This document shows, piece by piece, positions 23,324-52,804 of a stretch of 64,000 nt of DNA. Both the position numbers and the translations under genes were made by a program. The notes beneath the pieces are model-generated. The model was not told where the DNA came from and searched no databases. It worked only from the letters and a program-made list of their open reading frames with translations. This DNA is from Burkholderiales bacterium (GTDB lineage: Bacteria; Pseudomonadota; Gammaproteobacteria; Burkholderiales; Thiobacteraceae): positions 11,116 through 75,115 of the forward strand of contig JADMJT010000006.1 in the NCBI GenBank assembly GCA_018781585.1, given 5' to 3'. Position 1 is the first letter of the stretch; each line of letters begins with the position of its first letter.

Positions 23324-23345
23324 TTAATACCCCCAACGGGGTCCA

Positions 23346-23457: not shown

Positions 23458-23485
23458 TTCGTTAAATCGAACTCAGGAGAAAGTC

Positions 23486-31627: not shown

Positions 31628-32142
31628 GAGACCTCCTGGGCATTCAACACTGACTCCATCTCGAACTCGGCCCCCCACTCGCCAACATGCTTTTCAGCGA
31701 GCTGCGTAATTTCGTTGTCAGACAAGCCCCCAAATTCCGTAACTAACCATGCTGCCCTTTCGCGAAGGTGTGCCAAATACTCCGAGCTTAATACATCAAG
31801 GAAACCAGCCGAACGGTCTGTCGCGGAAAAAAGGACACCGTGTTCCGTGTAATGGCGGTCAATAAGGCCCCGGCTGAGGAATAGCAGCAATCCATCTTCC
31901 AGCATGCTGCGGCGTACCAGCAATTCGCCACTACGATGCGGCGTCTGCGGATGAAGACCAATCGGCCCGCCAGGAATGTCGTCCGAGTGCACGAGCAAAT
32001 AGTCAAAGACAACAAGTCGTTGCAACGAGAGTGCCGAGGGATATGAATCGTTCAAAATGGCCAAAGCACGAAGTCCAATCTCAACGGGGCCGTTGAAGGG
32101 CGAGGGGAGGCGTGGCTGGTGTTGAGTAATCACTTTACCCAC
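31618..32142 (-). CDS. lmuC: small middle component of the three-gene ABC system (LmuC-like)
   Basis: 174 aa with a GTG start overlapping the upstream stop by 13 nt. I recognise no enzymatic motif. The call rests on its position between the effector and the SMC-like ATPase. Confidence 0.55.
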   Translation of the reverse strand: MGKVITQHQPRLPSPFNGPVEIGLRALAILNDSYPSALSLQRLVVFDYLLVHSDDIPGGPIGLHPQTPHRSGELLVRRSMLEDGLLLFLSRGLIDRHYTEHGVLFSATDRSAGFLDVLSSEYLAHLRERAAWLVTEFGGLSDNEITQLAEKHVGEWGAEFEMESVLNAQEVSWQ

Positions 32143-33248: not shown

Positions 33249-36038
33249 CTATACCACCTTAAACACCTTCATCACCTCATCCCCCAGGTGATTGATAACC
33301 TTTACCGCAATCCGCCCTGACTTGGGTTTGTCGAAAGGCCGTGAGGTGTCGCTGTTGAGCGATGCCCAGGCTTCTTCGTTAATCTCAGCTTTGAGGGTGG
33401 TCTTGAGTGCTTTGTAGGGATCGTTTGCGCCCAAGAAATATGCATGGCGGACGAAGAAGCTTTCTTCGTTGTAGTCGGTGTCGATGAACCAGCAGGCGAT
33501 GCCTTCGGCGCCATCGCTGCGGACTTCTCCGGTGTTGGGGTGGAATACGTCCACGCCGTTGACCTTGACGCGGACTTGACCGGCTTCGGCTTCGATAATG
33601 TCGATGTCCGGCTCGCCGAAGATGACGAAGAGGTTGCCCTTGCCGGTATTTTTGAGATCGTCGGCCATATGCAGATCGGCGTTCATGCGCGCCTTGAGCA
33701 CGGGGATGCGGCCGAGTTTGTCGAATTCCGTTGAACGGGCGTCGTAGTTGAAGGCGCAGGCGATGAGCACATCGAAACCGGCATCGCCCGCTTCGCGTGC
33801 GGCTTCCACCAAGTCAGGGCGGGAGACGGTGCCAAACTCAGGTCCGATGAAGATGGCTGCGCGTTTTTCGCCGCCTGCATCCTCGTATCTCCCTTCGGCG
33901 CAGACCAGATCGCCCGGCCACGGAGTGAGGGAGGTAAAATTTATTTTGTCTTCCTTGTGCGCCTGCTGCACGCCAGCGGTTTTGAGATTTTCCAGGATCA
34001 TCTGGACGAAGTCGCGTTCCTCGCCGTAGCCTGCTTCTGTCTGGGCAGCGCGGTCGATCAGCTCGTCGTTTTCATCCACGGTCAGCACGCGGTGCGGCGA
34101 AAGGCTCTCCACCGTAAAGGGGCCAGCCACGCGAACCTTTTTCTTGTCCTCGTAAGGCTTGTCGTAGAGGTATTCGTGCTCAGCCTTGGCGGCGATGGAG
34201 GCGTCGATTTCTTTCTGGCGGGCGATGCGCGCACTCCACCAGTCAGTGTGCAATTTTTTCGCTGCGTCGGGCCACTTGGCGTCAGCCTCGCGGGGGATTT
34301 CCCATTCATGCCATTGCTTGCCCAGAGCCTTGTTCAGCTGTTCTCGTAGCGGCTCCAGCGTCTTCTGGAACTTGTCCCAAATCACGTCGATCTCGGCGTT
34401 GTTGGCGATGGATTTCAGGGTGACGTGCGGCACGCGCTCATAGACGAAGCCTTGGCGGATGTTGCCGCGTGTGGGCTGACTGGATGGCACGCTGCGGGTG
34501 ATTTCACCTTCCTTGACCTGCCCGTCGCGGCTGTCGGCGAGTAGGTAAAAGGGATAACGGGCGCCCATGATGCGGGCGCGGGCCAGGGCCAGCGCGACGC
34601 GGGAGGTGTCGAGGGTAATCCAGCGACGGCCCCACTGCTCGGCGACATAGGCAGTGGTGCCGGAGCCGCAGGTAGGGTCGAGGACGAGGTCGCCGGGATC
34701 GGTGGCCATCAAGAGACAACGCTCAACCACCTTGGTATGAGTCTGCACAACATAAGTTGGGTCGTCTTCGCCTCTCGTGTCATTCCAGACGTGAGATAGT
34801 TCTCGGTAAGGAAAATCATTGAAGTAGCGTTTGTAAATCCGCAAGCCCGACTGCTGGAGAAGTCGGCCAATTTTCCACAGCCGCCTGATGCCATCCGCCT
34901 GCGTCTTCCAATGACGATTTGGTTTGCAAGACAAAACAATCTTCTTGCCGCGCGCAACAACTTCGATGTCAGGATCATCTCCGCCTTTGGAGACTATGCT
35001 GTCTGTAGTAAGCAGCTTGGCACCGACAGGTAAACTGAGCTTGCCGCCCTCTGTAAAGCCACTAGCCGGCAGAAGCTGACCGTCGTCGAGTTCTACACGC
35101 TTGTATTCTTTTGCTCCAGAGTCACCTGGCGTCGTTTGCTCGTAGAATTTTCGATACTTGATGGCTTCAATTCGCTTGGCGTAAAACACTATGTAGTCAT
35201 GTGTCGTTGGGAGCGTGGAGGTTGTCGAGCCGCTCGTTTTCTGAACGGCGATGAGTGAGCAGAAGTTTTGCTCGCCAAACACCTCGTCCATCACTGCCCT
35301 TACCCGGTGCACATTCTCCTCCCCAATCTGCACAAAAATTGACCCGGAATCGGTCAACAAATCCCGCGCCACGGTCAGCCGGTCGCGCAGGTAGGTGAGA
35401 TAGGAGTGAATACCATCGCGCCAAGTATCGCGAAATGCCTTTACCTGCTCCGGCTCGCGGGTGATGTGGTCGGTGTTGCCGTCCTTCACGTCGCGGCTGG
35501 TGGTGGACCACTGAAAGTTGGAGTTGAATTTGATGCCATAGGGCGGATCGAAATAGATGCACTGCACCTTGCCGCGCAGCCCTTCACGCTCGGCAAGACT
35601 GGCCATGACTTGCAGGCTGTCGCCGAGGATCATGCGGTTGGCCCAGTGGGCATCGTGCTGGTAGAACTCGGTCTTGGCGTTGTCGTCGGGCAGGCCGTTG
35701 AAGTCGGCGAAGAGGTCATCCATTGTGCCCGGTTGCATTTTCTCACTCGCCTCGGTACGTCGGTGCAGGTCGTCGATGAGTACCTTGGGGTGGACCTTCT
35801 CCTGGATGTAGAGCGGCGGCGCATGAACGACGAGATCAGACCAGTCCTGCTCATCCTTGCCGCGCCACACAAGTTGCGGGTCAAGATCGCGGTTGCGGCG
35901 TTCATAGGCCACGCGGACGGGGCTTTGCTCTTCCTTCTGCATCACCGACTGGTATTCGGCGGTAGGAATGTTTTTGCGCGTGGCCTCGTCGTGCTTGAGG
36001 GTTTCGACGGTGAGCTTGGATGTGGGTTTTTTGGCCAT
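33249..36038 (-). CDS. mod: type III-like DNA methyltransferase (Mod; N6A/N4C beta class)
   Basis: 929 aa. Motif IV IYFDPPYGIKF precedes motif I VLDPTCGSGTTAYVA. The start lies 1 nt after the res stop. Confidence 0.85.
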   Translation of the reverse strand: MAKKPTSKLTVETLKHDEATRKNIPTAEYQSVMQKEEQSPVRVAYERRNRDLDPQLVWRGKDEQDWSDLVVHAPPLYIQEKVHPKVLIDDLHRRTEASEKMQPGTMDDLFADFNGLPDDNAKTEFYQHDAHWANRMILGDSLQVMASLAEREGLRGKVQCIYFDPPYGIKFNSNFQWSTTSRDVKDGNTDHITREPEQVKAFRDTWRDGIHSYLTYLRDRLTVARDLLTDSGSIFVQIGEENVHRVRAVMDEVFGEQNFCSLIAVQKTSGSTTSTLPTTHDYIVFYAKRIEAIKYRKFYEQTTPGDSGAKEYKRVELDDGQLLPASGFTEGGKLSLPVGAKLLTTDSIVSKGGDDPDIEVVARGKKIVLSCKPNRHWKTQADGIRRLWKIGRLLQQSGLRIYKRYFNDFPYRELSHVWNDTRGEDDPTYVVQTHTKVVERCLLMATDPGDLVLDPTCGSGTTAYVAEQWGRRWITLDTSRVALALARARIMGARYPFYLLADSRDGQVKEGEITRSVPSSQPTRGNIRQGFVYERVPHVTLKSIANNAEIDVIWDKFQKTLEPLREQLNKALGKQWHEWEIPREADAKWPDAAKKLHTDWWSARIARQKEIDASIAAKAEHEYLYDKPYEDKKKVRVAGPFTVESLSPHRVLTVDENDELIDRAAQTEAGYGEERDFVQMILENLKTAGVQQAHKEDKINFTSLTPWPGDLVCAEGRYEDAGGEKRAAIFIGPEFGTVSRPDLVEAAREAGDAGFDVLIACAFNYDARSTEFDKLGRIPVLKARMNADLHMADDLKNTGKGNLFVIFGEPDIDIIEAEAGQVRVKVNGVDVFHPNTGEVRSDGAEGIACWFIDTDYNEESFFVRHAYFLGANDPYKALKTTLKAEINEEAWASLNSDTSRPFDKPKSGRIAVKVINHLGDEVMKVFKVV

Positions 36039-36039
36039 A

Positions 36040-39000
36040 TTAAATTTCCTCCACCGCTGACTGGGTGGCCACTGAATCGATCATTTTATTGAACTCGGCT
36101 TCGACCTTCTTTGCGAAGTCGTGCTGCATTTGGTACACCTCGGTAAATTCCGCAAAGGCCCAGCGACCGTAGTTGCCCAGGTTGTTCACGCCGGGCACCC
36201 AGTAGATGTCCATGGTGTTTTTCTTTTCCTTGGCGTCTTCGCGGCGATAGCCCTTAATTTCGACAATGAGATGCAGCAAGTCGTCTTCGCCGTGGCCGTC
36301 ATCAACCAGCACGATGAAGTCTGGGATGTACTTGCGCGTTTCGGAGCCATAACGATATGGAACTTCCAGCCCGAGGTTGTGGTTTTTGACATAGGCTTTG
36401 ACGCGCGGGTGCGACTCTGCGACGCGGCAGAATTCACCCTCCCAGTCGCTGTCGAGGATCACCCAGTTGAGGTGGCAACGGCGGGCATCGGTCTCCCAGC
36501 GGTCCATCTTCGAGGTGTTGAAGTTGACATGCGCAGTGCTGCCCACTGGGTTGTAGGGGTCGAGCACGGCTTTGATCGGACGTTTGCCTAGATCAGATCG
36601 CGTGATGCCTGCCACGATGCGCTCGCAGGCCATATCGGCCAGCATTTTGTATTTGAGTTGCGCCGGATAGGTGCCGCCCTTGCACACCAGATAGCCTTCG
36701 ATCCACTGGCGAGCGATGCGCTTGAGTTGGCCGAACAGGTTGAGTTGAGGATCGCCGTTAGCGTCACGGAATTTTGTCAGTAGCAGATGTGAGGTGAGTT
36801 CGTAGATGACTTGTGATGGACGAACATCGCCGGTGTGTACCAGATTCAAATCCACTGTTTCGCCGATGATCCCGGAATTGCGCGTTTCGGTTGCGCCCAC
36901 CAGATCGGGGGTGAGTTCGAGCACGGAGTCGTCGTTGAATTCAGCGGAGAGACGATCTTCTGGCAACTCGGTGCGATAGCCTTGCACGCGCGGGAATGTA
37001 ATCTCGCAGTCATCACGATCGGGACGGATAGCTTTGACCTGGATGGTCTCGCGCGGTTTTTGCGGCGGCGCGACTACAGGTTTGGCGGTGAAATCGAAGG
37101 GGATGCCCAGCACGTCGGCGTATTCGACGTTGAACAGACCTTCCTCGTTGAGCTCGTAGGACTGGCGGCGCAAGGCGCGGCCAATTACCTGTTCGCACAG
37201 CAACTGGGTGCCGAAGGCGCGCACGCCCAGCACATGGGTGACGGTATTAGCATCCCAACCTTCGGTGAGCATGGATACAGACACGACGCAGCGGATGGAA
37301 TCGCCGAGGCGACCGGACTTGCCGACGGTGTTCATCACCTCGCGCAACAGTGAAGCGTCGTCCAGTTCCTTGCCTGCCCGCAGTTCATCGGCGAGTTTGC
37401 CGCCGCGTTCAAAAATCTCTTTGCGAAATTGAGTTATCTCGTCCGATGCCATATTGCGGAAATTGTCATCCAGGGCATCACCGGATTCGAGTTGCTCGCT
37501 ATCTATCAGCAGAGTGCGCGGACGGCCCAGCGGGTTGCCGTGTTCGTCGTGGTTGCGAAACAGGGCAAAACGTCCTTCCACCAGTTTGCTGGAGCCATCA
37601 TCATGTTGTTGCTGAAAACCGGAGATGTAGTCATAAACCAGCTTGGATGCGGATGTGTTGTTGCATACGACGATGAAGCAAGGCGGCACAGAGATTTTTT
37701 CTTTGGCCCAAAGCTCGAAGGTCTTTTCATAATGACCATATAGTGCTTCGAGTGCGGTCTGCAATTGGGTTGGCAGGTCGAGTGGGTTAAGCGTGTCGCC
37801 TTTGCCGCGCCCTTTCTTTGGCATCTTGGCGCGGATGTGTTCCCACAAATTGCGGAACATGGGCATTTCATTGCCGGGGATGTTATCTGCCACTGGCACG
37901 CGCGGTAGCTTGACGATGCCACATTCGATGGCATCCATCAGCGAGAAGTCGCTCATAGTCCAGGGGAACAAAGTGCCTTCAACATAGCCGGAGCCGCTCA
38001 GAAAGAATGGCGTGGCGGAGAGATCAATGACGCGGGGTACACCCAACTTGCGATTGACGGCTTCGAGGCCGGAAATCCATAAGCGTGCCGCCTCATTGTT
38101 TTCTTCGGCTTCCTTTTTCTCGTCGCCTTTCAGGTCTTCGTCATCGGTTTCTGCCTTCGGCTTTTCGCGGTAGCAGTGATGCGCTTCGTCATTGATGACC
38201 AGGACGTTTTTCATGCCCATCAATTCTGGCATGACACGCTGGAGCATTTGACCTTCGGTTTCGAGGGTGTCGAGTGGATCGCCGCCACGCCCTTGCAGCA
38301 GCAATCGCCCGCCTTTGGATAACTCCATGCGTTCGCGCAGTTTGAATGCGTGGTAGTTGGTGATGACGATTTTGGCGCGCTCCAGATCGCCCATCATGTC
38401 GCTGGGCACCAGTTCACGGCTTTGGTAGTAACTGTCCGGATCATTCGGTTGCAGCACGCGCAGGCGATCCTTGATGGTGAGTCCAGGTGCGACGACCAAA
38501 AAGCCGCGCGTGAATTTTTTGCTGGTGGGGCGGCGCACGGCGTTGATGGTCTGCCAAGCAATCAGCATGGCCATGACGGTGGTCTTGCCCGCACCGGTGG
38601 CCAGTTTCAGCGCCAGCCGCATCAGTTCGGGATTGGCATCGTTGTTGGCATTGGTCAGATAATCCAGAAACCGTTCCGCTGATTTGCCCAACTGGGGTGC
38701 GACTTCAGTCAGCCAGATAAGCGTTTCAACCGCCTCGACCTGACAGAAAAATGGACGAACGCCGCTGAAATTGTGATGCCGCCAATGTTGTAACAGCCGC
38801 GCAGTTTCTGGCGAGACGTGCCAAGTGTTGGGATTGGGTAAAGCACGCCATTTACCTACTTCCTGGCGAACCGCGTTGATGATGGCCGCCGTTTTTTGGT
38901 ATTCCTGCGCTTGGGTAGAGAGCCCCTTGTCATCGTCCAGCAACAACGATGTTTGTTCGGCTTGGCCTTTCCGTTTCTTAGGCTTAGGAAGTGGAGTTAT

Positions 39001-39126
39001 GTATTCTGCAGGACGGCGTTTATCAATTATCTGTTGTGTCGGCTGCCCATGGTCGAGTTCCCAATGACGAGATGGATGCTCGTAGGGGGAGTTGAGGATT
39101 GGTTTCTCGAAAAATTGGTTTTCCAT
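36040..39126 (-). CDS. res: type III-like restriction enzyme Res subunit (SF2 helicase + C-terminal PD-(D/E)xK)
   Basis: The track ORF starts at a TTG (39159); I prefer the ATG at 39126 (MENQFFEKPILNSPYEHP). Motif I LATGAGKTTVMA, motif II VINDEAHH. The nuclease motif is YIPDFIVLVDD...LIVEIKGY. Confidence 0.85.
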   Translation of the reverse strand: MENQFFEKPILNSPYEHPSRHWELDHGQPTQQIIDKRRPAEYITPLPKPKKRKGQAEQTSLLLDDDKGLSTQAQEYQKTAAIINAVRQEVGKWRALPNPNTWHVSPETARLLQHWRHHNFSGVRPFFCQVEAVETLIWLTEVAPQLGKSAERFLDYLTNANNDANPELMRLALKLATGAGKTTVMAMLIAWQTINAVRRPTSKKFTRGFLVVAPGLTIKDRLRVLQPNDPDSYYQSRELVPSDMMGDLERAKIVITNYHAFKLRERMELSKGGRLLLQGRGGDPLDTLETEGQMLQRVMPELMGMKNVLVINDEAHHCYREKPKAETDDEDLKGDEKKEAEENNEAARLWISGLEAVNRKLGVPRVIDLSATPFFLSGSGYVEGTLFPWTMSDFSLMDAIECGIVKLPRVPVADNIPGNEMPMFRNLWEHIRAKMPKKGRGKGDTLNPLDLPTQLQTALEALYGHYEKTFELWAKEKISVPPCFIVVCNNTSASKLVYDYISGFQQQHDDGSSKLVEGRFALFRNHDEHGNPLGRPRTLLIDSEQLESGDALDDNFRNMASDEITQFRKEIFERGGKLADELRAGKELDDASLLREVMNTVGKSGRLGDSIRCVVSVSMLTEGWDANTVTHVLGVRAFGTQLLCEQVIGRALRRQSYELNEEGLFNVEYADVLGIPFDFTAKPVVAPPQKPRETIQVKAIRPDRDDCEITFPRVQGYRTELPEDRLSAEFNDDSVLELTPDLVGATETRNSGIIGETVDLNLVHTGDVRPSQVIYELTSHLLLTKFRDANGDPQLNLFGQLKRIARQWIEGYLVCKGGTYPAQLKYKMLADMACERIVAGITRSDLGKRPIKAVLDPYNPVGSTAHVNFNTSKMDRWETDARRCHLNWVILDSDWEGEFCRVAESHPRVKAYVKNHNLGLEVPYRYGSETRKYIPDFIVLVDDGHGEDDLLHLIVEIKGYRREDAKEKKNTMDIYWVPGVNNLGNYGRWAFAEFTEVYQMQHDFAKKVEAEFNKMIDSVATQSAVEEI

Positions 39127-39323
39127 ATTATGTTTTCTGAGGATCAATCCAATATTCAAATAGAGGCATGATGCCGTGCTCCGAGCTCACAGAGTGAGCT
39201 ACTCCCCGTAATTCGCCTGAGTTTTACCAAGCGCATTTACCACAATTTCACGCAATGCCTACGGTTCTAATACTTCTACTTCTAGCCCATGCTTCATGGA
39301 TATCGTTTTCTAAAAAACCCTTT

Positions 39324-39551
39324 TTATTCCTTGCCTGCTGGGCCAGGCGATCCTTCCACTATTTCCAATAGATCCCCTACTTCGCATTCGAATAAGCGGC
39401 ATATTTTTTCGATAGCGATCAGGTCTATGCGCTCTGCTTTCTCGTGGTAGAGCAAGGCAATCGTGTTTCGATTCAAGTCAGTAGCCTTCGCCACGTCGGC
39501 AATTTTCATCTTGTGCTCGCCCATTAGGCGGGACAGGTGGCACTTAATCAT
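39324..39551 (-). CDS. XRE/Cro-type HTH transcriptional regulator (possible controller protein of the downstream array)
   Basis: 75 aa. HTH KIADVAKATDLNRNTIALLYHEK. Same strand as res and upstream of it. Divergent from the AAA+ gene. Confidence 0.8.
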   Translation of the reverse strand: MIKCHLSRLMGEHKMKIADVAKATDLNRNTIALLYHEKAERIDLIAIEKICRLFECEVGDLLEIVEGSPGPAGKE

Positions 39552-39689
39552 TTAGACACTCCAAAATACGAAACGCTACTTTGAATAGCGTAACAACCGT
39601 CAAGAACGCAAAAAGACTTTACAAATGCCATTTAACCGGCTAGAGTGCCATTCAGAATGACAAACCGCCTGTCTAGGAAGGAAGCTGTT

Positions 39690-40847
39690 ATGTCGGATGG
39701 TAGTGCAAAAGTGTGGCCGGGAGAAGACTTCAAGATGGATTCTTTGGAATCGGAGGAGACGCCGGAGTGCAAAGACACTGTAAAAGATGATCAGGAGACA
39801 ACTGCGGATAGCTCTCCGGAGCCAGGTGCAGAACCAGAAGCAGCTACGCCGTCCTGCCCTGCCAATCATATATATGTGCTCGACCCTATCGCCGTGCGCC
39901 GGATGACCAACCCGGTAACGGCCCGGCAACGTGGCGAGACACAGACCCGGCTGCGTGATTTGCTGCTTCAACACCAACATCTCGCCAGCCCGTATCCATT
40001 GCGCCCCTACCCGGCTGATATGGCGCAACGTTGGAAGAAGCTGCGCTCGAAGTTTCCAAATTTCAGCGAAGTGCTCGATCTCTTGGAGAAGCGCTACGCA
40101 CTCGCGCTGCTACGCCGGGACACGCCAGTTTCGTTTCCACCATTGCTTCTGCTCGGAGACCCCGGGGTCGGAAAGACGGCATTCAGCAAAGCACTGAGTA
40201 AGGAAATCGGCTTGTTTTATGGCGAAATTCAGATGTCTGGTCTCACAGAGGCATTTACGATTTCTGGGCTTGATGTCGGCTGGAGCAGCGGCAATCCGGG
40301 CCGCGTGTTTGAATATGTATCGGCCGCCAGGCATGCGAATCCTCTATTGCTGCTCGATGAATTCGACAAGTGTAGTCAAGGCGGCAGTGGTGGCGATCCG
40401 CACGCGCCCTTTCACGTCTTGCTCGAGCGTCATTCGGCGCAGCATTTCGAAGATATGGCAATTCGCCTGCCCGCAGATATGCGTTGGATCAATTGGGTTG
40501 CTACGGCCAATGAACCGCTCGCCATCCCAGCCTCATTGCTTTCCCGCTTCCGGCGAATTGTCGTGCCCAAACCTAGCCGCACGCAGATGACTGCCGTGAT
40601 TAATTCAGTCTACGAGGAGAAGCGCGATTCAGTGACGAACGGCGACTTGTTCGCACGGAAGCTCGACCAGTCAATCGTTGAACTACTTCTGGATCTCACG
40701 CCACGTGCGGTTGGTCTTGTCATCGAGGAGGCCATGGGCGCTTGTGCCAAGCGTTCACGACGCGGGCGATTGCTGCGTATCACGCCTGGCGATGTTTTTT
40801 TGCCGAAAAGCCACGAACAGCGGCGCATCGGTTTTTTCCCCAACTGA
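39690..40847 (+). CDS. Lon-like AAA+ ATPase without a protease domain; acidic, low-complexity N-terminus
   Basis: The track ORF starts at 39645; the ATG at 39690 follows GGAAGGAAG. Walker A LLLLGDPGVGKTAFSKAL, Walker B NPLLLLDEFDK, sensor/Arg region IPASLLSRFRRIVV. This layout parallels the Lon AAA+ module. Confidence 0.75.
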   Translation: MSDGSAKVWPGEDFKMDSLESEETPECKDTVKDDQETTADSSPEPGAEPEAATPSCPANHIYVLDPIAVRRMTNPVTARQRGETQTRLRDLLLQHQHLASPYPLRPYPADMAQRWKKLRSKFPNFSEVLDLLEKRYALALLRRDTPVSFPPLLLLGDPGVGKTAFSKALSKEIGLFYGEIQMSGLTEAFTISGLDVGWSSGNPGRVFEYVSAARHANPLLLLDEFDKCSQGGSGGDPHAPFHVLLERHSAQHFEDMAIRLPADMRWINWVATANEPLAIPASLLSRFRRIVVPKPSRTQMTAVINSVYEEKRDSVTNGDLFARKLDQSIVELLLDLTPRAVGLVIEEAMGACAKRSRRGRLLRITPGDVFLPKSHEQRRIGFFPN

Positions 40848-41837: not shown

Positions 41838-42857
41838 TTATTCTGGCATTGTCTCGGACGTGAAAGGAATATCCATATAGAGGCTGCCGTCGTTGCGATG
41901 TGAGACGATCAGCCCTCCTTCGACGACAAGTTCATCTGCAAGGTCGCCAAGTGCCTCGAACGAGCTTTGGTCGCTCCAATGTCCGTAATCGTCGGCAATG
42001 CGCTTGCAGAGCACGCCCAAACGCTCGAAATATGACGCGAACCAGTGACCTTTGAGAGCAGCCTTCGTTTTTGGCAAGTCCATCAATGACAGCCTTTGCC
42101 CCGCCATGTTGCCGAGATGATATGCGGCAAACTTCATGAGTGAGCCGTAGGCAGCATATATCTCGGCCATAATCTTAGTGACATCTCCGTGCCGACGATA
42201 CGCCTTTATGAGCGCGTTGGCCTTCGAGCGCGTCTCGTTCAACAGAAGAATGAAAGTCTCCTCGTAGCCGGCAGTGGGGTCATGTCCGAAGGGTGCGCTG
42301 ATCCAGGTTGCTGCGTATTCGTCCCAGCACGCCAAGTTGATCTGCCACCTTGCAGCGTCATGGATATTCTTGTAAACGTTCTGCAAGAGAACGTTTGGAA
42401 ATGCCGTGTCGAAGCGATGCGTTATCTCGACATGTGCACATTCATGCGCAAGCGTGTGTAGTGCCAACTTGAAATGCTCAGAGTTGGGATCTTCAAGCGC
42501 GATGGCTAAAGCCGCGTTCAACACAATGTGACTCTTCACGATTCCATCGCGAATGACGGAAGGTGTCATCGCGACGCCGATAGCAAATTCATCGGACGGT
42601 GTTAGTCGATGTGAGTAGAGGTATCCCCGATCAAGGTCTAGCAGCGCCTGATTGTAGTCAAATGCAATCGTGACCCCGTCGAGACGGCTTAGGTCGATTT
42701 GGCGGCTCAACTCTTGGATATATACGCCGGCAAGGTGCGCGAATTGCGTTGCCCGCTCTTCCATATCGAATCCCCGTACGGTGACGGGAAGGTTTTTTGG
42801 CGCAGTATACGGGCGATCTTCCGGCTCCCTTGTCCCACTTTGGATATCCTTTTCCAT
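41838..42857 (-). CDS. hypothetical protein with an HExxH motif (possible zincin-like metallopeptidase)
   Basis: The track ORF starts at 42878; the ATG at 42857 follows AAGGAG. The only motif I recognise is LHTLAHECAHVEITH. Confidence 0.6.
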   Translation of the reverse strand: MEKDIQSGTREPEDRPYTAPKNLPVTVRGFDMEERATQFAHLAGVYIQELSRQIDLSRLDGVTIAFDYNQALLDLDRGYLYSHRLTPSDEFAIGVAMTPSVIRDGIVKSHIVLNAALAIALEDPNSEHFKLALHTLAHECAHVEITHRFDTAFPNVLLQNVYKNIHDAARWQINLACWDEYAATWISAPFGHDPTAGYEETFILLLNETRSKANALIKAYRRHGDVTKIMAEIYAAYGSLMKFAAYHLGNMAGQRLSLMDLPKTKAALKGHWFASYFERLGVLCKRIADDYGHWSDQSSFEALGDLADELVVEGGLIVSHRNDGSLYMDIPFTSETMPE

Positions 42858-42944
42858 GGCTCCTTTCCTGCGGATCAAATGCCCCGACTTTTGGTCGGAG
42901 AGTTGATCGCGGCTAGCCGATACCCTTATGGCTAACGAAGGCCG

Positions 42945-45440
42945 CTAAAGGTACAACGACGGCTCTTCATTCCACTCCGATATCAAGCTGCGTGCTAGAG
43001 TTTGACCGGATAAAAGCTCTCTTAACTGTGCCACCTTGCCTTCCATCTGTCGGGCTTCACCGGATAGGGCTGTCAGGATCGCGACATCGGCCTTCAGTTC
43101 ATTCGCCGTCGCGGCAAGATCCTCGATGTCGCTCTTTGCGATCTGGTCTACCCTTGGCTTTGCCTCACCAATGAAAAATTTTCCGTCCACGATGCAAACC
43201 ACGTCCAGTTCGCGGTCGGCTTTCATGCCCTGGTTCTCGGGGTAGTCGCGAAAGAGCGCCGTTTGGGGTGCAAAAATGAACGATTTTTTTGCTTCTCGCC
43301 GCAGTGCACTCAGTGCCCATATGACGCTGAGCGTATCGTGCTCGCGAAGACACGTTGCCAGAAACTCGTTGAGACGGAAGTCGAGAGTGAGATCAACAGG
43401 GAGGTGATGCTCTTGCTGGCAAATCTCGCATGGCATCACGTTCTTCAGAGCATCGACGGAAACCCAGTTTCGATGGGAGCAGTGGCGGCAGACCCACTCG
43501 TGACCGCGATAGAACACACCGCGTTCACACAAGTATCCAAGGGAGCTCTTGATGCCTTCAGGTGCATCCGCGAGGATCGCGTCGCTCTGGTCTTTTATAT
43601 GGGTATTTACCTCTATTGCTGCCGTCAGCTCCTTTTTCCACGCTTCCAGAAGACGGGTGTATTGCGTGGTTAGCCTGGGAACTCTGAGATCGCTCGACAT
43701 CTGTATTACGCGCTCGGCCAAGTTTTGCCAGCCGGCCCCATCCTCGATCACTAGCGTCCCGCTCTTTGCCTTGAGGCGCCGCTGCAGTTTCGTGATCACC
43801 ACCGGGTATTGCTCGGTCGCCGGCGTAGCCATCGTTTCAAATTGCGTTCGCCAGAAGTGCCCACCGAGCACGGCTTCGGCGTCGCTCAGCGAGCCAAACA
43901 TACCCAGGACACCCTGCAGGTAGCGCCCCTTGTCAGATGGTTTTGAAAACTTGTACGCGACATTTGTCGCGAGTACCTTTCGCATGTCGCGGTATGCATA
44001 CTGTGCGGCGTCGTTTAGCAGGCTATAGAACACCTCTTGGTCTTCTGGCTGTGACACCTCTAAGGCTTGGATGTCTTTGTGCACCTCAATGCCAATGTCG
44101 CCGGTTCGCAATATCCTTGTGGGTCGTTTTTTGTGGAATACACGCAGTAGCTGCGGACGTTTTGGCAGCGTCCACACGTCCCGAACATTGTCAAACCGGC
44201 TGTTATCGTTCAAGCGATCGATTTGGAGATCAACGTACCAACTTCCTCTGGACATGATCGGATGCGCGCCGGTGCAGTACTTGACCTGTATCGGGCTCGG
44301 GACTGACACGGCTACAGGGCTCTCACCGATGGCGACTTCTGAAGAAGCGTTGTCTGTAGGGCGCACAAAGTGGATGCTCTTGTCCCCTGCCGGGCAGCAG
44401 TCTTCCGCCGTATCAATCCGCGCAACATTGACGATTGACATCGACGGCCCGCGGAGTTGCTCGGCAAACGCCTCGAGTTCTTCTTTATTCAACGAGTGCG
44501 AGCGCACCGAAACCCTTGACGAGCTATTGTTCTGGCCTAGCCAGTTGCAGTTCCGGAGGAACTCTGCAATACACTTGGTGTTATCAGGCTCCAACCTAGT
44601 CGCAGCCGGAACACGGAGGGTCTTGTACGTTTGGTGCTGCGCGTCGTCGTAGAGCAGCGCGGAATTCCAGCACGTAACTCTATCCAGAAAGCTGTCGCCC
44701 ACGACTAGGCAGAAGCTGTCTCGCCACGGATGCTCCACGCGATGCCGCTGCGCGTAGAGGTTCGACAGATAACCGAGCGTGAGGAGGCTGTTATTATGGT
44801 GCAACCGCGGCAGAATTTCATACGCGCTGTTGATTTCCTCGTGTCCTGCGTTACCGAAGTGCCATCGGTTCGCCGGCGGGTCTGGAGGGGTCAACATCAA
44901 TGGCCGAACATAGTCGGCCAATTCGCGATGAACCGGGAACTGTTCTAGACTTGAGGAGAGTGAGCCGAAGTTATCTGTCACGAAACCGTCGTCGCGCCAT
45001 AGTGGATAGGAATCCAGAATCAGTTCTGGACGTGCCCGAATAGCACCCGAGCTGATCTTCAAAAACGGCAGCCATGATAGGGCCGTCAGCGCGGGCTCTT
45101 CGAGGCCGACGCTGGGGTGCTCCTCGAGTGTGTCGCGCTTTCTCTCGCGACCCAAGATTACCGTGTCTGCTAAAAGGTCAGCAAGCGGTTGAACGAGGGC
45201 GGCGTTGTCATACGTCAATGCGAAGACGACATCAGGGTCGAGCACGCGCAGCCAATTAGCATAGCGCTGGGGAATCAAGGCGTTTTCAACCGGCACGACC
45301 AGTGATTGACGGCCACCGTGTCTGCCAAGGCACGACGCAAAGATACTGTTAAGCCAGCGGGGTGCATCGAGACCGTCCTCAATGAGGTAGGCGACACGAA
45401 CAGGACGCGAGATGGCGTGGATTTTCGGACTAGGTTTCAC
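42945..45440 (-). CDS. large hypothetical protein (831 aa) with a C-terminal CxxC...CxxC zinc ribbon and a PD-(D/E)xK-like nuclease motif
   Basis: GTG start with GGAG 8 nt upstream. I found no P-loop. Residues about 651-681 read CRHCSHRNWVSVDALKNVMPCEICQ. Residues about 744-761 read ELDVVCIVDGKFFIGEAK (D...ExK). Confidence 0.7.
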   Translation of the reverse strand: MKPSPKIHAISRPVRVAYLIEDGLDAPRWLNSIFASCLGRHGGRQSLVVPVENALIPQRYANWLRVLDPDVVFALTYDNAALVQPLADLLADTVILGRERKRDTLEEHPSVGLEEPALTALSWLPFLKISSGAIRARPELILDSYPLWRDDGFVTDNFGSLSSSLEQFPVHRELADYVRPLMLTPPDPPANRWHFGNAGHEEINSAYEILPRLHHNNSLLTLGYLSNLYAQRHRVEHPWRDSFCLVVGDSFLDRVTCWNSALLYDDAQHQTYKTLRVPAATRLEPDNTKCIAEFLRNCNWLGQNNSSSRVSVRSHSLNKEELEAFAEQLRGPSMSIVNVARIDTAEDCCPAGDKSIHFVRPTDNASSEVAIGESPVAVSVPSPIQVKYCTGAHPIMSRGSWYVDLQIDRLNDNSRFDNVRDVWTLPKRPQLLRVFHKKRPTRILRTGDIGIEVHKDIQALEVSQPEDQEVFYSLLNDAAQYAYRDMRKVLATNVAYKFSKPSDKGRYLQGVLGMFGSLSDAEAVLGGHFWRTQFETMATPATEQYPVVITKLQRRLKAKSGTLVIEDGAGWQNLAERVIQMSSDLRVPRLTTQYTRLLEAWKKELTAAIEVNTHIKDQSDAILADAPEGIKSSLGYLCERGVFYRGHEWVCRHCSHRNWVSVDALKNVMPCEICQQEHHLPVDLTLDFRLNEFLATCLREHDTLSVIWALSALRREAKKSFIFAPQTALFRDYPENQGMKADRELDVVCIVDGKFFIGEAKPRVDQIAKSDIEDLAATANELKADVAILTALSGEARQMEGKVAQLRELLSGQTLARSLISEWNEEPSLYL

Positions 45441-45981
45441 TCAAGCAACTCCGTTACGAATCGAATAGTCCGCAATATCGCGATCATGAATCCGGCTATC
45501 GTGCACCGAGAAGGTGGAATCACATTTTTGATCGAGCCGCTTCATCGCTCTTTACTAACGCATCTTATCAACAATTCCATTGGGAATGACCCACGGCTAT
45601 CCAGGTCCTCGTACTTCTCCCTGTTCCTGTACATTGGGTCACGACTCAGACTTTCCCGAGACAGTACATTGAATCAGTCTTCTGGGTGACCGATTTCGGC
45701 GCAATGCTGTTGGTCACTTTGGCCGAGCAAGAGACACCGGCCGCACTCAGCGTGAGCCTCAGCTTCTGGCCGAACAGTGCCACCTAGAGTATGGAAGTGC
45801 ATGACCGCTGCATTGGAGACATTGGGCGCTATGAAATGTCGCTAGCAATACGAATCATCGCGATAAAGCGGGTTTTCAGCGTACTTAACACATGGCAAAG
45901 ATTACATAACCCTTAGAATGGCGCAGGAAATAAGCCGCTTCGACTGGTAAACTTGCGGTTTGCCAAATTTTACTAAGACAT

Positions 45982-47055
45982 ATGAAGCCAGCCGCACCCG
46001 AAATTTTCCAAGTCCCAACCAACGAGTTTCAATCAGCATTCAAGCCCGGCACGCCTGAATTCGAGATGGCGGCGATGACCCACTACGCCGCCGAATACTC
46101 AAATCGCGGTTGGACGGCCGTCGTCACCGTTGATCCGGATTTTATTCGCGTCGTGGCACTGCCCGCCGGCGGGATGGACCCCAAAGCATACGTACTGGGC
46201 CTGCTGAAAAATCGGTTTCTCGAAGACGCGCTGCCGATTCTGGAAGCTCTGGACGGCATGATCGATGACGCCGATATCGCCTTCAATCATGGAATCTGCC
46301 TGTCGGAATTGGGCCACATCGCGGAGTCGGTGGAGCCGTTGGAACGCGCCATCGGGATCGACCCAAAATACGTCAATGCATATGTGGGGCTTGGATTCTC
46401 CCTTACAAAACTTGGCCGAAATGAAGAGGCTGAGGCGCCGCTGCGCAAAGCTATCGCGCTGGATCCCGAGAATTCGTATGCGAAACGGAATCTGGCGGCT
46501 GTGTTGGGCCGCATGGGACGGATGCAGGAGGCGCTACCGTTCTTCCGCCAGGCGGCGTCCCTCGCACCGAACGATCCCGGAGCGATGCTTGGCCTGGCGC
46601 AATGTCTCGACGATCTTGACGGTGATTACCGCAAAGAGGCGGACAAGATTTACGAGCAGATCACCAATAAATTTGGCGATCACCCGGTCGCAGAAATGGC
46701 GCGGGTAGCCCGCAACAAGATTGCCGGCGAAGACTTGCATGCAACGGTGGATGGAAAAATAAGAATGGATGCCGTGTTTTACATGCAGGGGGCGATGGAG
46801 CATTTCGCCGCCATGCCGAAAGAACGTATCGGCAAGATCGCAATGGAAATCGCCAACCTTGGCCGCGACGGGCTCAAGATCAACGAACCGGAGGCTCGCT
46901 ATCACCTCGAAAATATGGAAGGTGATTTTTCCGGTCTGCATTTGCTGTGCCTCATGCACGTAGGCTTCCGAATGTTCGATCCGGAGGCGGATGCCGGTAC
47001 AGGCCTTGATCGTGAATATAAAGCAGCGGTAGCAATGCAAGGTGGAAAGGCGTGA
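45982..47055 (+). CDS. tetratricopeptide-repeat protein
   Basis: 357 aa. Consecutive TPR-like 34-mers (AFNHGICLSELGHIAESVEPLERAIGIDPKYVNAYVGLGFSLTKLGRNEEAEAPLRKAIALDPENSYA...). Confidence 0.75.
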   Translation: MKPAAPEIFQVPTNEFQSAFKPGTPEFEMAAMTHYAAEYSNRGWTAVVTVDPDFIRVVALPAGGMDPKAYVLGLLKNRFLEDALPILEALDGMIDDADIAFNHGICLSELGHIAESVEPLERAIGIDPKYVNAYVGLGFSLTKLGRNEEAEAPLRKAIALDPENSYAKRNLAAVLGRMGRMQEALPFFRQAASLAPNDPGAMLGLAQCLDDLDGDYRKEADKIYEQITNKFGDHPVAEMARVARNKIAGEDLHATVDGKIRMDAVFYMQGAMEHFAAMPKERIGKIAMEIANLGRDGLKINEPEARYHLENMEGDFSGLHLLCLMHVGFRMFDPEADAGTGLDREYKAAVAMQGGKA

Positions 47056-47567
47056 GCGCGATCCCGGAGAGCTATTGGCAGATCATTGAACCGCTGATCG
47101 CGACGGCGCGCGGCTTTCTGGAAAACGGCGAGAAACTGTCGCCCATTGCCTTCGTTGGCAACTTCGAGGCGGGCACTACTATCCCAGTGCAGATGCAAGC
47201 TGGCAGCGATGAGGCAAAAGATCAATCGGCGCGAGCCATCAAATTGATTGCCGAACAGCACAATGCCGATTTTATTTTCACCATCATGGAAGCGTGGTCG
47301 CTCCGGCCAGACAAGCTCCACATGATCGATGAAATATACGATAAATACGGCTCGATTGGCGCAAGCCCCTATGCGATTGATGTGGTGACGTTTTCGCTCG
47401 AAGCCCGGCATGGTGTTTTTATCGCGCAGTGCCCAATTAAACCCAAGGGGTACAGCAAGAAAAAACGCACCTTCGGCAAACCGGAGTTTCGGCTATTCAC
47501 AGAAGCGCAGGGGCGATTCGTGGATTTGCTGCCGGTGAAAGATGGCGCGGGCGGGACGTTGCATTGA
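47052..47567 (+). CDS. hypothetical protein (171 aa), translationally coupled to the TPR gene
   Basis: The GTG start overlaps the TPR stop (GTGA). I recognise no motif. Confidence 0.5.
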   Translation: MSAIPESYWQIIEPLIATARGFLENGEKLSPIAFVGNFEAGTTIPVQMQAGSDEAKDQSARAIKLIAEQHNADFIFTIMEAWSLRPDKLHMIDEIYDKYGSIGASPYAIDVVTFSLEARHGVFIAQCPIKPKGYSKKKRTFGKPEFRLFTEAQGRFVDLLPVKDGAGGTLH

Positions 47568-48471: not shown

Positions 48472-48783
48472 TCAGGCATGAGAAGGCTTTGGCGCCTTCT
48501 TGATTTTGATTTCTACAACCTTGCCAACTGCCCTGGCTGCCTTGATGAGCGTGTCTAGTTGGATGGACGTATTGTTGGGATCCAACACACGGTCAAGTTG
48601 GGAGCGGCTGGTTTCCATTTTTTGCGCCATGGCGAGTTTGGTCAGGTGCGCTGCTTGCATGCTGTCTTCAAGCTGCTCGGACAGCACGCGTTTGAGCGCC
48701 TTCGCCTGCACTTCTTCGAAGACACCTTCTTCTTTCAAGAAGTCATCAAAATCAGAACCGGTATGAGGATTACGTTTCGCCAC
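48472..48783 (-). CDS. HigA-like HTH antitoxin
   Basis: Track ORF 48472..48861 trimmed to the GTG at 48783 (VAKRNPHTGSDFDDFLKEEG), which overlaps the toxin stop by 14 nt. The HTH region reads MQAAHLTKLAMAQKMETSRSQLDRVL. Confidence 0.7.
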   Translation of the reverse strand: MAKRNPHTGSDFDDFLKEEGVFEEVQAKALKRVLSEQLEDSMQAAHLTKLAMAQKMETSRSQLDRVLDPNNTSIQLDTLIKAARAVGKVVEIKIKKAPKPSHA

Positions 48784-49123
48784 GATGCCACTCCTTAAAG
48801 CGTTTTTCCGCCAGATCAATATCCGCACTTGGGGTCTGCTGCGTCTTCTTGATAAAGCCATGCAGCAGAATCATTTGCCCGCCCTCGACCGCAAATAGCG
48901 TCCGCGCAATCCGGTTACCCAGAGACGTGCGAACTTCCCAAACAGCGCCGCGCAAGTGATCGACGCGAGGCTTGCCGATGGGCCATTTGTATTGCACGTA
49001 GGCAATGTCTTCGCCAATGGTTTTTCGATCATCCTTTGGCAATTCCTTAAGCCATTCGCGCACCGGTTCCTTGCCGGCTGCCGAGCGATAGAAAATCGCC
49101 CGGAGTTTCTGGGGGCTAGGCAT
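48770..49123 (-). CDS. RelE/HigB-superfamily toxin (Gp49-like)
   Basis: 117 aa. Reads FYRSAAGKEPVREWLKELPKDDRKTIGEDIAYVQYKWPIGKPRVDHLRGAVWEVR...RTLFAV...ILLHGFIKKTQ. Confidence 0.75.
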   Translation of the reverse strand: MPSPQKLRAIFYRSAAGKEPVREWLKELPKDDRKTIGEDIAYVQYKWPIGKPRVDHLRGAVWEVRTSLGNRIARTLFAVEGGQMILLHGFIKKTQQTPSADIDLAEKRFKEWHRGET

Positions 49124-49189: not shown

Positions 49190-50227
49190 CTAGCGGCGCT
49201 TGGGCGCATTGCTGCCTGGTCCACTATAGACACGGCGCCGCGGTCTAACGGCGCGGGTTGCTTTCACTCCTAGCACACGGTTGCCGCCCCGCCGGGCCTG
49301 CCGCTGATGTCCGTAAAAGCGTTGCGTCTCTTCAACTGAATGCCCTAAAGCTTGAGCAACCTGATCCGAATCCAAGTCATCCGCCTTTAAGTCAGCCGAA
49401 AATTGATGACGGTAAACATAGGGAGTTACGTGGGCTTTACGACGCGGCCAGAGTTTTTTCGAAATACCAACAACCGAATCTTTCAACAGCGCAGCTTTAA
49501 CCGTGACAATCAGCGGCGAGCCTTGGACTGCCAACTGCCGCTCAAGATGTGCCGCTTCGGGGGAGTCTATCCTAATGAGAATAGACCGCTCTTTCTGACC
49601 GAATTTGCCGTCATGTGTCTTCGCTCCAATTACTTTGAACAAAATACCTTCATTCAACCCCTCAACTTTGATGCCGGCTTCCAACTCAGCAGGGCGACAA
49701 CCAGTACAAGACAAAATCGCGATAGCGTCACGATACTTCCCACGTTTAGGAACCGCCTCCCACATTCGAGCGCGCCAATCACTTGGTAGTTGGGCGAGAA
49801 CTCGCCGCTTGGAAAGGCTTTGCGTGACGATGGCTTGCGCCTTGGCATGCGCGACCCAAGCACCGATCTGACCAGAATGTATCCGCTGGCGCTTAGGGTC
49901 GGGGGCGTACTGGTTGAGCCTTATGCGCAATTCCTGAAGCCTTTTGACGGATCGAATCGTACTCTGATGCTCGCCCATCCCGTAGGCAAAAATGGATATG
50001 CTACGGAGCAACCGCATCTCATGCAAAATGCCATATATCCACGCGGCCCGATAAAAATAAAAACTATTTTTCCGGGCCGCACCCATTTTCAAGGGTGTTG
50101 CGCTGTCTTTTGTCATGCGCTTGCAGGCCTGCAGATACTGGCGGCATGTCGTTTCACTTGGCTTGGGAAAGTGATCCAGAAATCTTTCGACCGATTGGAT
50201 GAACCGGGAAAACTGTACATGATCCAT
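49190..50227 (-). CDS. second tyrosine recombinase / phage-integrase-family protein
   Basis: 345 aa. Catalytic-region motifs LSCTGCRPAEL, TPYVYRHQF and ALGHSVEETQRFYGH. Confidence 0.7.
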   Translation of the reverse strand: MDHVQFSRFIQSVERFLDHFPKPSETTCRQYLQACKRMTKDSATPLKMGAARKNSFYFYRAAWIYGILHEMRLLRSISIFAYGMGEHQSTIRSVKRLQELRIRLNQYAPDPKRQRIHSGQIGAWVAHAKAQAIVTQSLSKRRVLAQLPSDWRARMWEAVPKRGKYRDAIAILSCTGCRPAELEAGIKVEGLNEGILFKVIGAKTHDGKFGQKERSILIRIDSPEAAHLERQLAVQGSPLIVTVKAALLKDSVVGISKKLWPRRKAHVTPYVYRHQFSADLKADDLDSDQVAQALGHSVEETQRFYGHQRQARRGGNRVLGVKATRAVRPRRRVYSGPGSNAPKRR

Positions 50228-52108: not shown

Positions 52109-52804
52109 TTGAATCAGTCTCGACAACCCGATGCCTATGCTAACGAGCCTCAGCTTAAGGATGCCCTGCCCATCAACCCACTCGACGCAACCATCCTGGT
52201 GGTGGATGACGATGCCTCGGTGCGGCGCAGTTTGGCGCGTCTGCTTCGTTCAGCAGGCTGGAAAGTCGAAACGTTTGCTTCTGCCAACGACCTTCTGGAT
52301 CAAGCGCCGTTCACCGCGCCAGGTTGCATATTGCTCGACGTCCAGATGCCTGGGATGAGCGGCATGGAGTTGCACGAAAGCCTATCCGGGCTGGGTGTCT
52401 CGCTGCCGGTGGTTTTCCTGACCGGAAAGGGTGATATCTCGATGAGCGTGCAAGCCATGAAGCATGGCGCGATCGACTTTCTGGTCAAGCCGGTTGCCGA
52501 GGATGTCCTGTTGCAAGCGCTGGAGCAGGCCATCGCGCGTCATCTTGCCGACGCAGCCGGCAGGCAGGCGCGCGACGACGTCGCGTCGCGCCTTGCGCTG
52601 CTCTCCCCGCGCGAACGCGAGGTGCTGCAACATGTCCTGCGGGGGCGCCTGAACAAGCAGATTGCCGGTGACCTGGGTATCGCCGAGAAAACCGTGAAGG
52701 TGCATCGCGGTCGGGTGATGGAGAAGATGGCCGCCGGCTCGCTCGCGAAACTGGTTCACATGTGCGATACCGCAGGTATTGAATTTCCCGACGCCGTTGG
52801 CTGA
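52109..52804 (+). CDS. response regulator, REC + LuxR/FixJ-type HTH
   Basis: 231 aa with a TTG start in the track; the true start is uncertain. REC domain ILVVDDDASVRRSL...LLDVQMPGMSG. LuxR HTH LSPREREVLQHVLRGRLNKQIAGDLGIAEKTVKVHR. Confidence 0.85.
   Translation: MNQSRQPDAYANEPQLKDALPINPLDATILVVDDDASVRRSLARLLRSAGWKVETFASANDLLDQAPFTAPGCILLDVQMPGMSGMELHESLSGLGVSLPVVFLTGKGDISMSVQAMKHGAIDFLVKPVAEDVLLQALEQAIARHLADAAGRQARDDVASRLALLSPREREVLQHVLRGRLNKQIAGDLGIAEKTVKVHRGRVMEKMAAGSLAKLVHMCDTAGIEFPDAVG

Follow-up and report, generated by a model that had tools for sequence, protein, structure and literature searches.

The locus under study consists of two adjacent genes on the minus strand of a 64,000-nucleotide (nt) stretch of the Burkholderiales contig JADMJT010000006.1, hereafter referred to as the window. 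The first gene, which encodes a protein of 831 amino acids (aa), occupies positions 42945–45440 in the list of open reading frames (ORFs) and runs from a GTG start to a TAG stop. The second, which encodes a 339-aa protein, follows downstream at 41838–42857 and opens with an ATG. A GGAG sequence is found 8 nt 5' of the GTG codon, and the alignment places this start at the conserved N-terminus, MKP(D/S)PK, of the homologous proteins. The ATG of the 339-aa gene is preceded by AGGAG, and its frame would encode 346 aa if the upstream TTG given in the ORF list were taken as the start. The spacer between the two genes (42858–42944, minus strand) measures 87 nt, an arrangement that agrees with a first-pass annotation of the window, made from the sequence alone, in which both genes were interpreted as parts of a single defence system. 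Because no terminator-like site was found in the 87-nt spacer, the two genes are probably co-transcribed in the window, a plausible arrangement that is nonetheless without evolutionary support.

On its 5' side, the 831-aa gene is abutted by an ORF of 34 codons (45441–45545, minus strand) that begins at the ATG at 45545 and ends in an in-frame TGA (45441–45443) directly upstream of the GTG start. Both features exist as first described, when they were suggested to be a leader ORF or the trace of an interrupted, longer N-terminus. Neither explanation was borne out, as the homologues begin at the MKP motif and do not conserve the upstream peptide. Its tblastn matches are located solely in two contigs from the same organism (L001 and L002), which are 100% identical to the window. 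Confined as its peptide is to identical contigs, the ORF can be dismissed both as a remnant of the N-terminus and as a conserved leader, and it is probably fortuitous. Further upstream, an intergenic region of 541 nt, close to the 540 bp originally estimated, is shared with a divergently oriented gene pair encoding a tetratricopeptide repeat (TPR) protein of 357 aa and a 171-aa protein (45982–47567, plus strand), which is outside the present finding. A search of the intergenic regions against Rfam returned no regulatory RNA at E ≤ 0.1. The repeats in the 541-nt region are short and unremarkable, and the frequency of promoter-like sites does not exceed that of shuffled sequence.

The proximity of the two genes gave rise to the initial proposal of one defence or abortive-infection system, in which an 831-aa sensor-nuclease is joined by a 339-aa peptidase partner that, for example, activates or regulates the nuclease. 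In favor of this proposal, the genes share a strand, are spaced by 87 nt with no terminator-like site between them, reside in a defence island and are both unannotated. We analyzed 80 loci with a homologue of the 339-aa protein, taken from species-representative genomes (33–65% identity) of Alpha-, Beta- and Gammaproteobacteria and a few other groups, and 37 metagenome loci with a relative of the 831-aa protein for the reverse linkage test. No 831-aa relative was found within 10 kb at any of the 80 loci, using tblastn as well as full-length and per-domain hidden Markov models (HMMs), and none of the 37 metagenome loci contained a 339-aa homologue. The same result was obtained at some ten further loci with an 831-aa relative, which include the closest, distant and plasmid-borne members of the family, and the closest relatives of the 339-aa protein likewise have no 831-aa gene beside them. 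Elsewhere, the two genes occur together solely in L001 and L002, the two contigs that are identical to the window, and the families differ in both size and range.

Other partners were not apparent for either gene. No cluster of recurrent neighbours was found around the 831-aa relatives and no conserved neighbour around the 339-aa homologues, where clustering revealed synteny among close relatives only. The same-strand genes upstream of the 339-aa homologues encode proteins of 84 to 1343 aa that are mostly dissimilar to each other, and HMM searches detected neither a shared C-terminal nuclease nor any other shared domain among these variable genes. Comparison of the loci thus indicates that the 831-aa and 339-aa genes are very probably not a conserved pair, and a single system with a peptidase partner is highly improbable given the absence of co-occurrence outside the window organism. 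Because they are never neighbours in other genomes, we regard the two as separate uncharacterised genes of a mobile island and not as one system. Our preferred reading, with a probability of roughly 0.6, is that the locus is made up of two evolutionarily independent single-gene cargo modules that stand side by side in a defence island integrated at a transfer-messenger RNA (tmRNA) gene. Adjacency in a defence island is no evidence of a system, and the tempting inference from an operon-like layout is corrected here.

We also considered that the TPR and 171-aa proteins are the true partners of the 831-aa nuclease in a three-gene system. The two units share the 541-nt divergent region in the window, and the closest relative of the 831-aa protein (P0002; 59% identity) adjoins a candidate counterpart pair composed of a TPR protein of 362 aa and a 178-aa protein. 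However, no match to the 357-aa or the 171-aa protein (E ≤ 1e-2) was obtained in 37 other loci with an 831-aa relative, several of which offer ample flanks and encode proteins with 47–58% identity to the 831-aa protein. Two related islands may also simply share cargo. A partnership with the TPR unit is, therefore, very unlikely. As regards gene order, the TPR/178-aa pair of P0002 is convergent with the 831-aa gene and located downstream of it, whereas the TPR/171-aa pair of the window is divergent.

The 831-aa protein aligns end to end with 85 close homologues. An exhaustive profile search extended this group to a superfamily of at least 2694 cluster representatives (clusters at 50% identity) at E ≤ 1e-3, of which 589 are found at E ≤ 1e-30; most of the superfamily consists of full-length proteins of 800–870 aa. 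This large superfamily is unannotated and is named by no curated database. In agreement with the first-pass annotation, which assigned no family to either protein, neither the 831-aa nor the 339-aa sequence matches Pfam, NCBIfam, PADLOC or a sequence in the PDB, and sub-domain and deeper profiles of both proteins gave nothing above threshold in these resources. PADLOC-DB v2.0 in particular has no family for the two window proteins, and none for nine of ten distant relatives of the 831-aa protein. In the literature, no report on either protein was retrieved under its accession, locus tag or PHROG identifier.

The structures of both proteins were predicted with AlphaFold and compared by Foldseek, as had been suggested; the models are confident, and over their whole length they resemble no solved structure. 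The AlphaFold2 (AF2) model of the 831-aa protein has a predicted local distance difference test (pLDDT) value of 90 and a predicted template modeling (pTM) score of 0.85. It displays alpha/beta domains over residues ~1–340, a beta-rich and then helical part up to residue ~640, a zinc ribbon at residues 643–680 and a C-terminal alpha-beta-beta-beta-alpha-beta unit. Whole-chain comparison to the PDB revealed nothing convincing (template modeling (TM) scores of ~0.1), and matches to ANL enzymes and LacI-type domains (TM ~0.1–0.2) were rejected as generic similarity of alpha/beta layers. No Walker A or DEAD motif was found in the protein, in line with the earlier remark that its first ~650 residues lack a P-loop.

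The N-terminal alpha/beta region, delimited by the AF2 secondary structure and by conservation, comprises residues 1–340 (44421–45440, minus strand) and has no family or PDB match. Residues conserved throughout the superfamily include R12, G42-G43, D68-P-D70, N157-F158-G159, G248, D253, W258-N259 and S314. Among 94 superfamily members at 20–50% identity, the invariant columns correspond to G43, D68, D70 and W258, together with the four cysteines of the zinc ribbon and D746 of the nuclease motif. The GG loop, the DxD motif and the NFG and WN motifs form a strongly conserved, pocket-like set, which suggests a putative site for a cofactor, metal or other ligand, or a second catalytic site. The middle region, defined by the model and by conservation as residues 341–640 (43521–44420, minus strand), contains a beta-rich part with conserved W401, W423 and P426, the motif SDKGRYLQG at residues 502–510 and a more variable helical segment at residues 540–620. 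The conservation profile shows that residues 1–80, 241–260 and 501–540 are as conserved as the nuclease. The first 650 residues had been described as sensor-like, a description that is doubtful since the N-terminal 80 residues and the 241–260 motif are conserved to the same degree as the nuclease; such a profile is not that of a fast-evolving sensor.

The zinc ribbon, which reads CRHC...CEIC in translation, is encoded at 43401–43511 (minus strand) and contains C651, C654, C671 and C674 in a Cys4 arrangement. Its pattern, W-x-C-x2-C-x3-N-W with two CxxC knuckles, resembles RanBP2/NZF fingers, and residues W649, N658 and W659 are conserved in the close homologues. A profile of the ribbon aligns to the NZF of TRABID with E = 0.016 and a 6-residue insertion relative to NZF; the matches to zf-Sec23_Sec24 and NZF are sub-threshold. 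The ribbon is followed by a predicted PD-(D/E)xK, or restriction-endonuclease-like, domain (42981–43382, minus strand), recognized from its motif, its model and sub-threshold profiles. The catalytic motif, D746...E759-x-K761, lies in ELDVVCIVDGKFFIGEAK (43158–43205, minus strand) as checked by translation. In the model, DSSP assigns the order H703–716, E721–730, E743–751, E754–763, H769–782 and E786–793, which sets D746 and E759-x-K761 on consecutive strands. The four cysteines, D746, E759 and K761 are invariant in 48 close homologues, and E759 and K761 remain at least 90% conserved in the 94 superfamily members. At the level of sequence conservation, the zinc-ribbon and D...ExK motifs are not the product of chance.

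Similarity to known nucleases was found at the sub-threshold level. No curated PD-(D/E)xK family gave a significant profile match to the C-terminus; its last 196 residues yielded sub-threshold matches to PDDEXK_10, Card1_endonuc, Hjc and Mrr_cat with E values of 0.06–0.16. An hhalign comparison sets ELDVVCIVDGKFFIGEAK on the D...QxK motif of the Mrr protein encoded in the same island (E = 0.065, also sub-threshold), and a distant relative (P0233) matches the PADLOC model CARF_PDDEXK with a sub-threshold E value of 0.0026. In the whole-chain Foldseek comparison, Can2, a fusion of CARF and a PD-(D/E)xK nuclease, was retrieved with a probability of 0.77 and a low TM score. The convergence of these matches, the conserved motifs and the order of the core elements uphold the initial assignment of a C-terminal zinc ribbon and nuclease, and the C-terminus of the 831-aa protein is very likely an active PD-(D/E)xK nuclease.

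The genomic contexts of the 831-aa relatives are variable. The gene of P0002 is found beside an integrase, an HATPase_c_3 protein and GmrSD. Other relatives adjoin a Type I restriction–modification (R-M) system at one locus and TIR, OLD-TOPRIM and Abi_C genes at another, a relative on a Piscirickettsia plasmid lies beside a RelE toxin–antitoxin (TA) module, and MazEF is located near the homologue from Burkholderia glumae. The Pfam content around these genes includes integrases, S24 peptidases, RhuM, a C5 methylase, DUF4143 and flanking housekeeping genes. No relative was found in 50,697 phage records or in IMG/VR, and the family is present on only three plasmid records. Because the gene occurs solo, in islands, and is absent from phages, a restriction-like or immune role fits the 831-aa protein, and we consider the chances of a defence or restriction role to be even. 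In the most likely mechanism, the 831-aa protein would need no partner and would cleave nucleic acids in an immune or restriction-like capacity. Its N-terminal domains would bind a cue or cofactor and thereby gate or direct the zinc-ribbon-guided nuclease, which would then cut invading DNA or, abortively, the DNA of the cell.

The same contexts admit a non-immune function, in which the 831-aa protein would be a nuclease of mobile elements or DNA metabolism, serving recombination, repair, maintenance or addiction, and would have reached the islands by way of integrases and transposases. Integrases, a trio of tyrosine recombinases, IS66, a Mu-like transposase and TniQ/TniB occur near several of the loci, no PADLOC model matches the protein, and its N-terminal domain is highly conserved and not diversifying. 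On the other hand, no recombinase or type of element is consistently linked to the 831-aa relatives, which do not occur in phages and are very rare on plasmids; at several of their loci, bona fide defence genes are densely packed. We thus consider a purely mobile-element or DNA-metabolic function unlikely, and favor the restriction-like role for the 831-aa protein.

Several of these loci display particular arrangements. In plasmid pbghn2 of B. glumae (L121, NZ_CP052134.1; 3428–11505), the 831-aa homologue is positioned directly 3' of three tandem tyrosine recombinases and a 174-aa protein resembling helix-turn-helix (HTH) proteins. This layout is that of a 'recombinase in trio' element and suggests that the 831-aa nuclease gene is able to travel as its cargo. 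At two other loci, large genes without a Pfam match follow distant members on the same strand: a 691-aa gene 3' of P0232 (L124, 12470–14545), and an 851-aa and a 481-aa gene 3' of P0084 (L128, 12678–16656), with gaps of 37–104 nt between the distant members and these genes. They were considered as hidden conserved partners or paralogues and were rejected, as they are dissimilar to each other and to both the 831-aa and the 339-aa families. In a fourth locus (L132, 1012–7295), the distant relative P0214, a DUF5131 gene and a 384-aa gene are apparently inserted in the gene of a tRNA-dihydrouridine synthase (Dus), and Dus-matching ORFs flank the insertion on both sides.

A comparison with described systems places the 831-aa protein closest to Upx in functional terms. 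Upx is a single-protein anti-phage nuclease whose C-terminal PD-(D/E)xK core is regulated by the N-terminal and middle domains (PMC13099982; PDB code 9wuf). Both are large, lone polypeptides with a C-terminal nuclease, occur in defence contexts and have no NTPase. The analogy is not accompanied by detectable homology, as Upx is outside the top 50 Foldseek matches in the PDB and the searches of PDB sequences were negative. The 831-aa protein departs from Upx in its Cys4 zinc ribbon and in an N-terminal alpha/beta region that is distinct and highly conserved; again in contrast to Upx, no evidence of a second nuclease domain was found in it. END nucleases, which are modular, methylase-less restriction enzymes, combine PLD with an inactive EndoIII (PMC12191111); on account of this make-up, they were rejected as relatives.

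Can2, Card1 and Mrr share with the 831-aa protein the D...(E/Q)xK motif, which in the 831-aa model is predicted to lie on a beta-hairpin within an alpha-beta-beta-beta-alpha-beta core like theirs, to which the sub-threshold matches also point, and the fusion of the nuclease to a non-catalytic or regulatory N-terminal part. They differ in that no CARF, winged-helix, SRA or PUA domain was detected in the 831-aa protein, whose 640 N-terminal residues are unlike those of either family; furthermore, no type III CRISPR or cyclase context is present at its loci. The lack of a conserved methyltransferase neighbour among the 831-aa relatives is reminiscent of Type IV restriction, although no known modified-base sensor domain was detected. 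A bolder reading is that the superfamily represents a new type of single-protein immune nuclease, in which an enzymatic or nucleotide- or metal-binding N-terminal module, for instance a signal-sensing or substrate-modifying one, controls the zinc-ribbon-guided PD-(D/E)xK nuclease. The highly conserved N-terminal region with GG42–43, D68-x-D70, NFG157–159 and WN258–259, which has no detectable relative, would be this module, and described defence systems would offer no example of such a mechanism. We regard this reading as rather improbable.

The 831-aa superfamily and the 339-aa family are both sizeable, and neither bears a name in any curated database. The former, whose confidently predicted N-terminal architecture of ~640 residues matches nothing known, recurs as a solo gene in variable islands and defence islands. 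Should the 831-aa protein prove to restrict phages or plasmids, it would represent a new nuclease system made up of one gene and equipped with a new module for regulation or sensing.

The 339-aa protein contains a HECAH sequence (H138-E139-x-x-H142; 42432–42446, minus strand), which was checked by translation, and a WDEY motif with E180 (42315–42326, minus strand) that is conserved as WDE(Y/F). All of 68 distinct homologues, even a phage protein at the lower limit of 23% identity, retain H138, E139, H142 and E180, and the whole family includes at least 419 homologues. The AlphaFold model (pLDDT 91.8, pTM 0.90) consists of a small beta-sheet, a long helix with the HExxH motif (residues 129–152), a helix with the invariant glutamate (residues 165–187) and a subsequent helical bundle. 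The topology of the predicted fold is of the gluzincin type, and E180 would act as the third zinc ligand. The only family match of the protein is phrog_11743, a phage family without functional annotation, which is matched over its full length (E = 7.4e-86; residues 18–333 on positions 7–323 of the 323-position profile).

Structural searches with this model against the PDB were negative, with TM scores of ~0.2 at most. In BFVD, the best fold match is a phage protein labeled 'endopeptidase family M34', which is weak (E = 0.018, probability 0.69), and lower matches are to other putative phage peptidases. Anthrax lethal factor and M32 carboxypeptidase were matched faintly. A match to Upx (E = 0.065, root mean square deviation 24 Å) was rejected as noise. 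The zincin-like character proposed in the first-pass annotation is supported by the invariance of HExxH and of the glutamate on the downstream helix and by the weak similarity to M34-type phage peptidases. The 339-aa protein is likely to be an active zinc peptidase.

The resemblance to the M34 (anthrax lethal factor-like) and M32 gluzincins comprises the HExxH motif on a long helix, an invariant glutamate ~38 residues further on in the next helix and a small beta-sheet that precedes the active-site helix. The domains outside the active site are different, and the fold matches are not significant (best E = 0.018, TM ~0.2). ImmA/IrrE (M78) proteins are likewise HExxH peptidases that are common on phages, integrative and conjugative elements (ICEs) and plasmids. 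They pair or fuse with an HTH repressor, as does the protein encoded at 25434–26480 of the island, whereas no HTH gene is conserved beside the members of the 339-aa family; the 339-aa protein gave no match to the Pfam M78 family. Lit of prophage e14, a member of Peptidase_U49, is an HExxH abortive-infection protease that cleaves EF-Tu. Like Lit, the 339-aa protein is solo, borne on mobile elements, of a size around 300 aa, devoid of a partner gene and recognizable solely by its HExxH motif. It differs from Lit in its long C-terminal helical bundle and in having no match to Peptidase_U49 or to the PADLOC Lit model at E ≤ 1.

Homologues of the 339-aa protein are spread over plasmids, ICEs, islands and some phages of Alpha-, Beta- and Gammaproteobacteria. 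Their upstream neighbours include SAVED proteins, a Type ISP R-M enzyme, a kinase with a zinc ribbon, an RNase T-like protein and an HTH protein, and other settings feature HipA, UvrD/AAA and KAP genes, Cas9 with HipA, or ssb with radC. The family is present on 37 plasmids, half of which are conjugative, in two IMG/VR contigs and in one Acinetobacter phage (1 of the 50,697 phage records), where it occupies a moron-like region beside an anti-repressor. The closest relatives (71–72% identity) are found in the cargo regions of ICEs, after a DUF6338 gene. Because the family is spread on every kind of mobile element, a Lit-like or an anti-defence role fits, and for a conflict-related role of the 339-aa protein in the broad sense, whether in defence or anti-defence, we see about an even chance. 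As a solo zinc metallopeptidase with HExxH and Glu180 as ligands, it would most likely take part in a conflict by cleaving one particular protein. It could do so as an abortive-infection protease comparable to Lit, or on behalf of its element, as a factor that counters defence or aids establishment. If the protein cleaved is a defence or translation factor, a new protease would be added to those at work where mobile elements and hosts come into conflict.

The second of these options, that the metallopeptidase serves mobile elements by cleaving a defence or regulatory protein of the host, is a possible, less probable explanation when taken alone. Its carriage by conjugative plasmids and ICEs, its place beside ssb/radC on a Celeribacter plasmid and beside an anti-repressor in the phage moron-like region, its membership in a PHROG family and its variable neighbours are all consistent with such a function. 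Against it, the gene is embedded just as often in chromosomal islands, with defence and TA genes around it, and the phage record and the two IMG/VR contigs are the only occurrences in those collections.

Two ICE-like contigs from one sample (L130 and L131) show the surroundings of the closest 339-aa relatives. In both, at 7167–9020, a DUF6338 protein with predicted hydrophobic N-terminal segments precedes the 339-aa relative, and the conjugation genes TraG_N and TraU follow. Further upstream, L131 contains an MmeI-type R-M enzyme and L130 an N6/N4 DNA methylase. DUF6338 was rejected as a conserved partner since it is confined to these two near-identical ICEs. On plasmid pP73C of Celeribacter indicus (L135), a gene pair for a multiubiquitin-domain protein and an E2/UBC protein (11622–12568), which constitutes a bacterial ubiquitin-like conjugation module, is located ~5 kb from the 339-aa homologue. 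The vicinity also includes an ImmA/IrrE peptidase as well as ssb and radC, and may correspond to a leading or anti-defence region of the plasmid.

Several points weigh against the interpretation of the locus as two independent conflict modules. Neither protein matches the defence models of PADLOC v2, the association with defence genes is qualitative, and many neighbours of the 831-aa relatives are housekeeping or unannotated genes. Membership in the PD-(D/E)xK and zincin groups is drawn from motifs, predicted topology and sub-threshold matches. The conservation of the N-terminal region is unusual for a fast-evolving phage sensor, and the gating model may, therefore, be wrong. Given the large unannotated genes 3' of distant relatives, some sub-branches of the superfamily may have lineage-specific, variable partners. 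Finally, the 831-aa and 339-aa genes, being probably co-transcribed, may cooperate locally in the window.

The surroundings of the two genes confirm the location in a defence island given by the first-pass annotation. A tmRNA gene (22957–23323, plus strand) and a tyrosine integrase ORF that overlaps it (23288–24748; domains Arm-DNA-bind_3, Phage_int_M and Phage_integrase) mark the left end of the ~27-kb island. No exact direct repeat (≥12 nt) of the tmRNA 3' end, as expected of attL/attR, was found downstream, and the right boundary is undefined for this reason. Next to the integrase, profile matches identify the RmrA-like protein with HTH and Peptidase_M78 domains (25434–26480) and the Mrr_cat nuclease (26769–27635), which carries a C-terminal Top1-type zinc ribbon. 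A UvrD-like helicase (27672–29744) with matches to GajB and NERD+UvrD follows. The Lamassu system is complete and is encoded on the minus strand by LmuB (29789–31678, E = 2.9e-165), LmuC (31618–32142, E = 5.5e-53) and LmuA (32130–33236, E = 9e-121), for which the Pfam labels are, in this order, AAA_23, MC2 and ABC-3C CTD6. A Type III R-M system comprises a Mod-like protein of 929 aa with an N6_N4_Mtase domain (33249–36038) and a Res-like protein of 1039 aa with ResIII and RE_endonuc domains (36040–39159).

Beyond the TPR unit, a RelE/HigB-like protein (117 aa) and an HTH antitoxin-like protein (129 aa) form a pair at 48472–49123, followed by a second, weak ORF of the Phage_integrase family (49190–50227) and by a 231-aa ORF (52109–52804) with weak PADLOC matches to SduA (DUF4263) and CARF. 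The island may be composite. Between the R-M genes and the 339-aa gene, a small HTH gene (39324–39551, minus strand) is divergent from an AAA ATPase (39645–40847) with weak PADLOC matches of the IetA/TRIP13 type, which is accompanied by a LAGLIDADG endonuclease-like ORF (40678/40882–41394; 170 aa as called in public contigs). The AAA ATPase and the LAGLIDADG protein are an unusual combination and may constitute a small system of their own.

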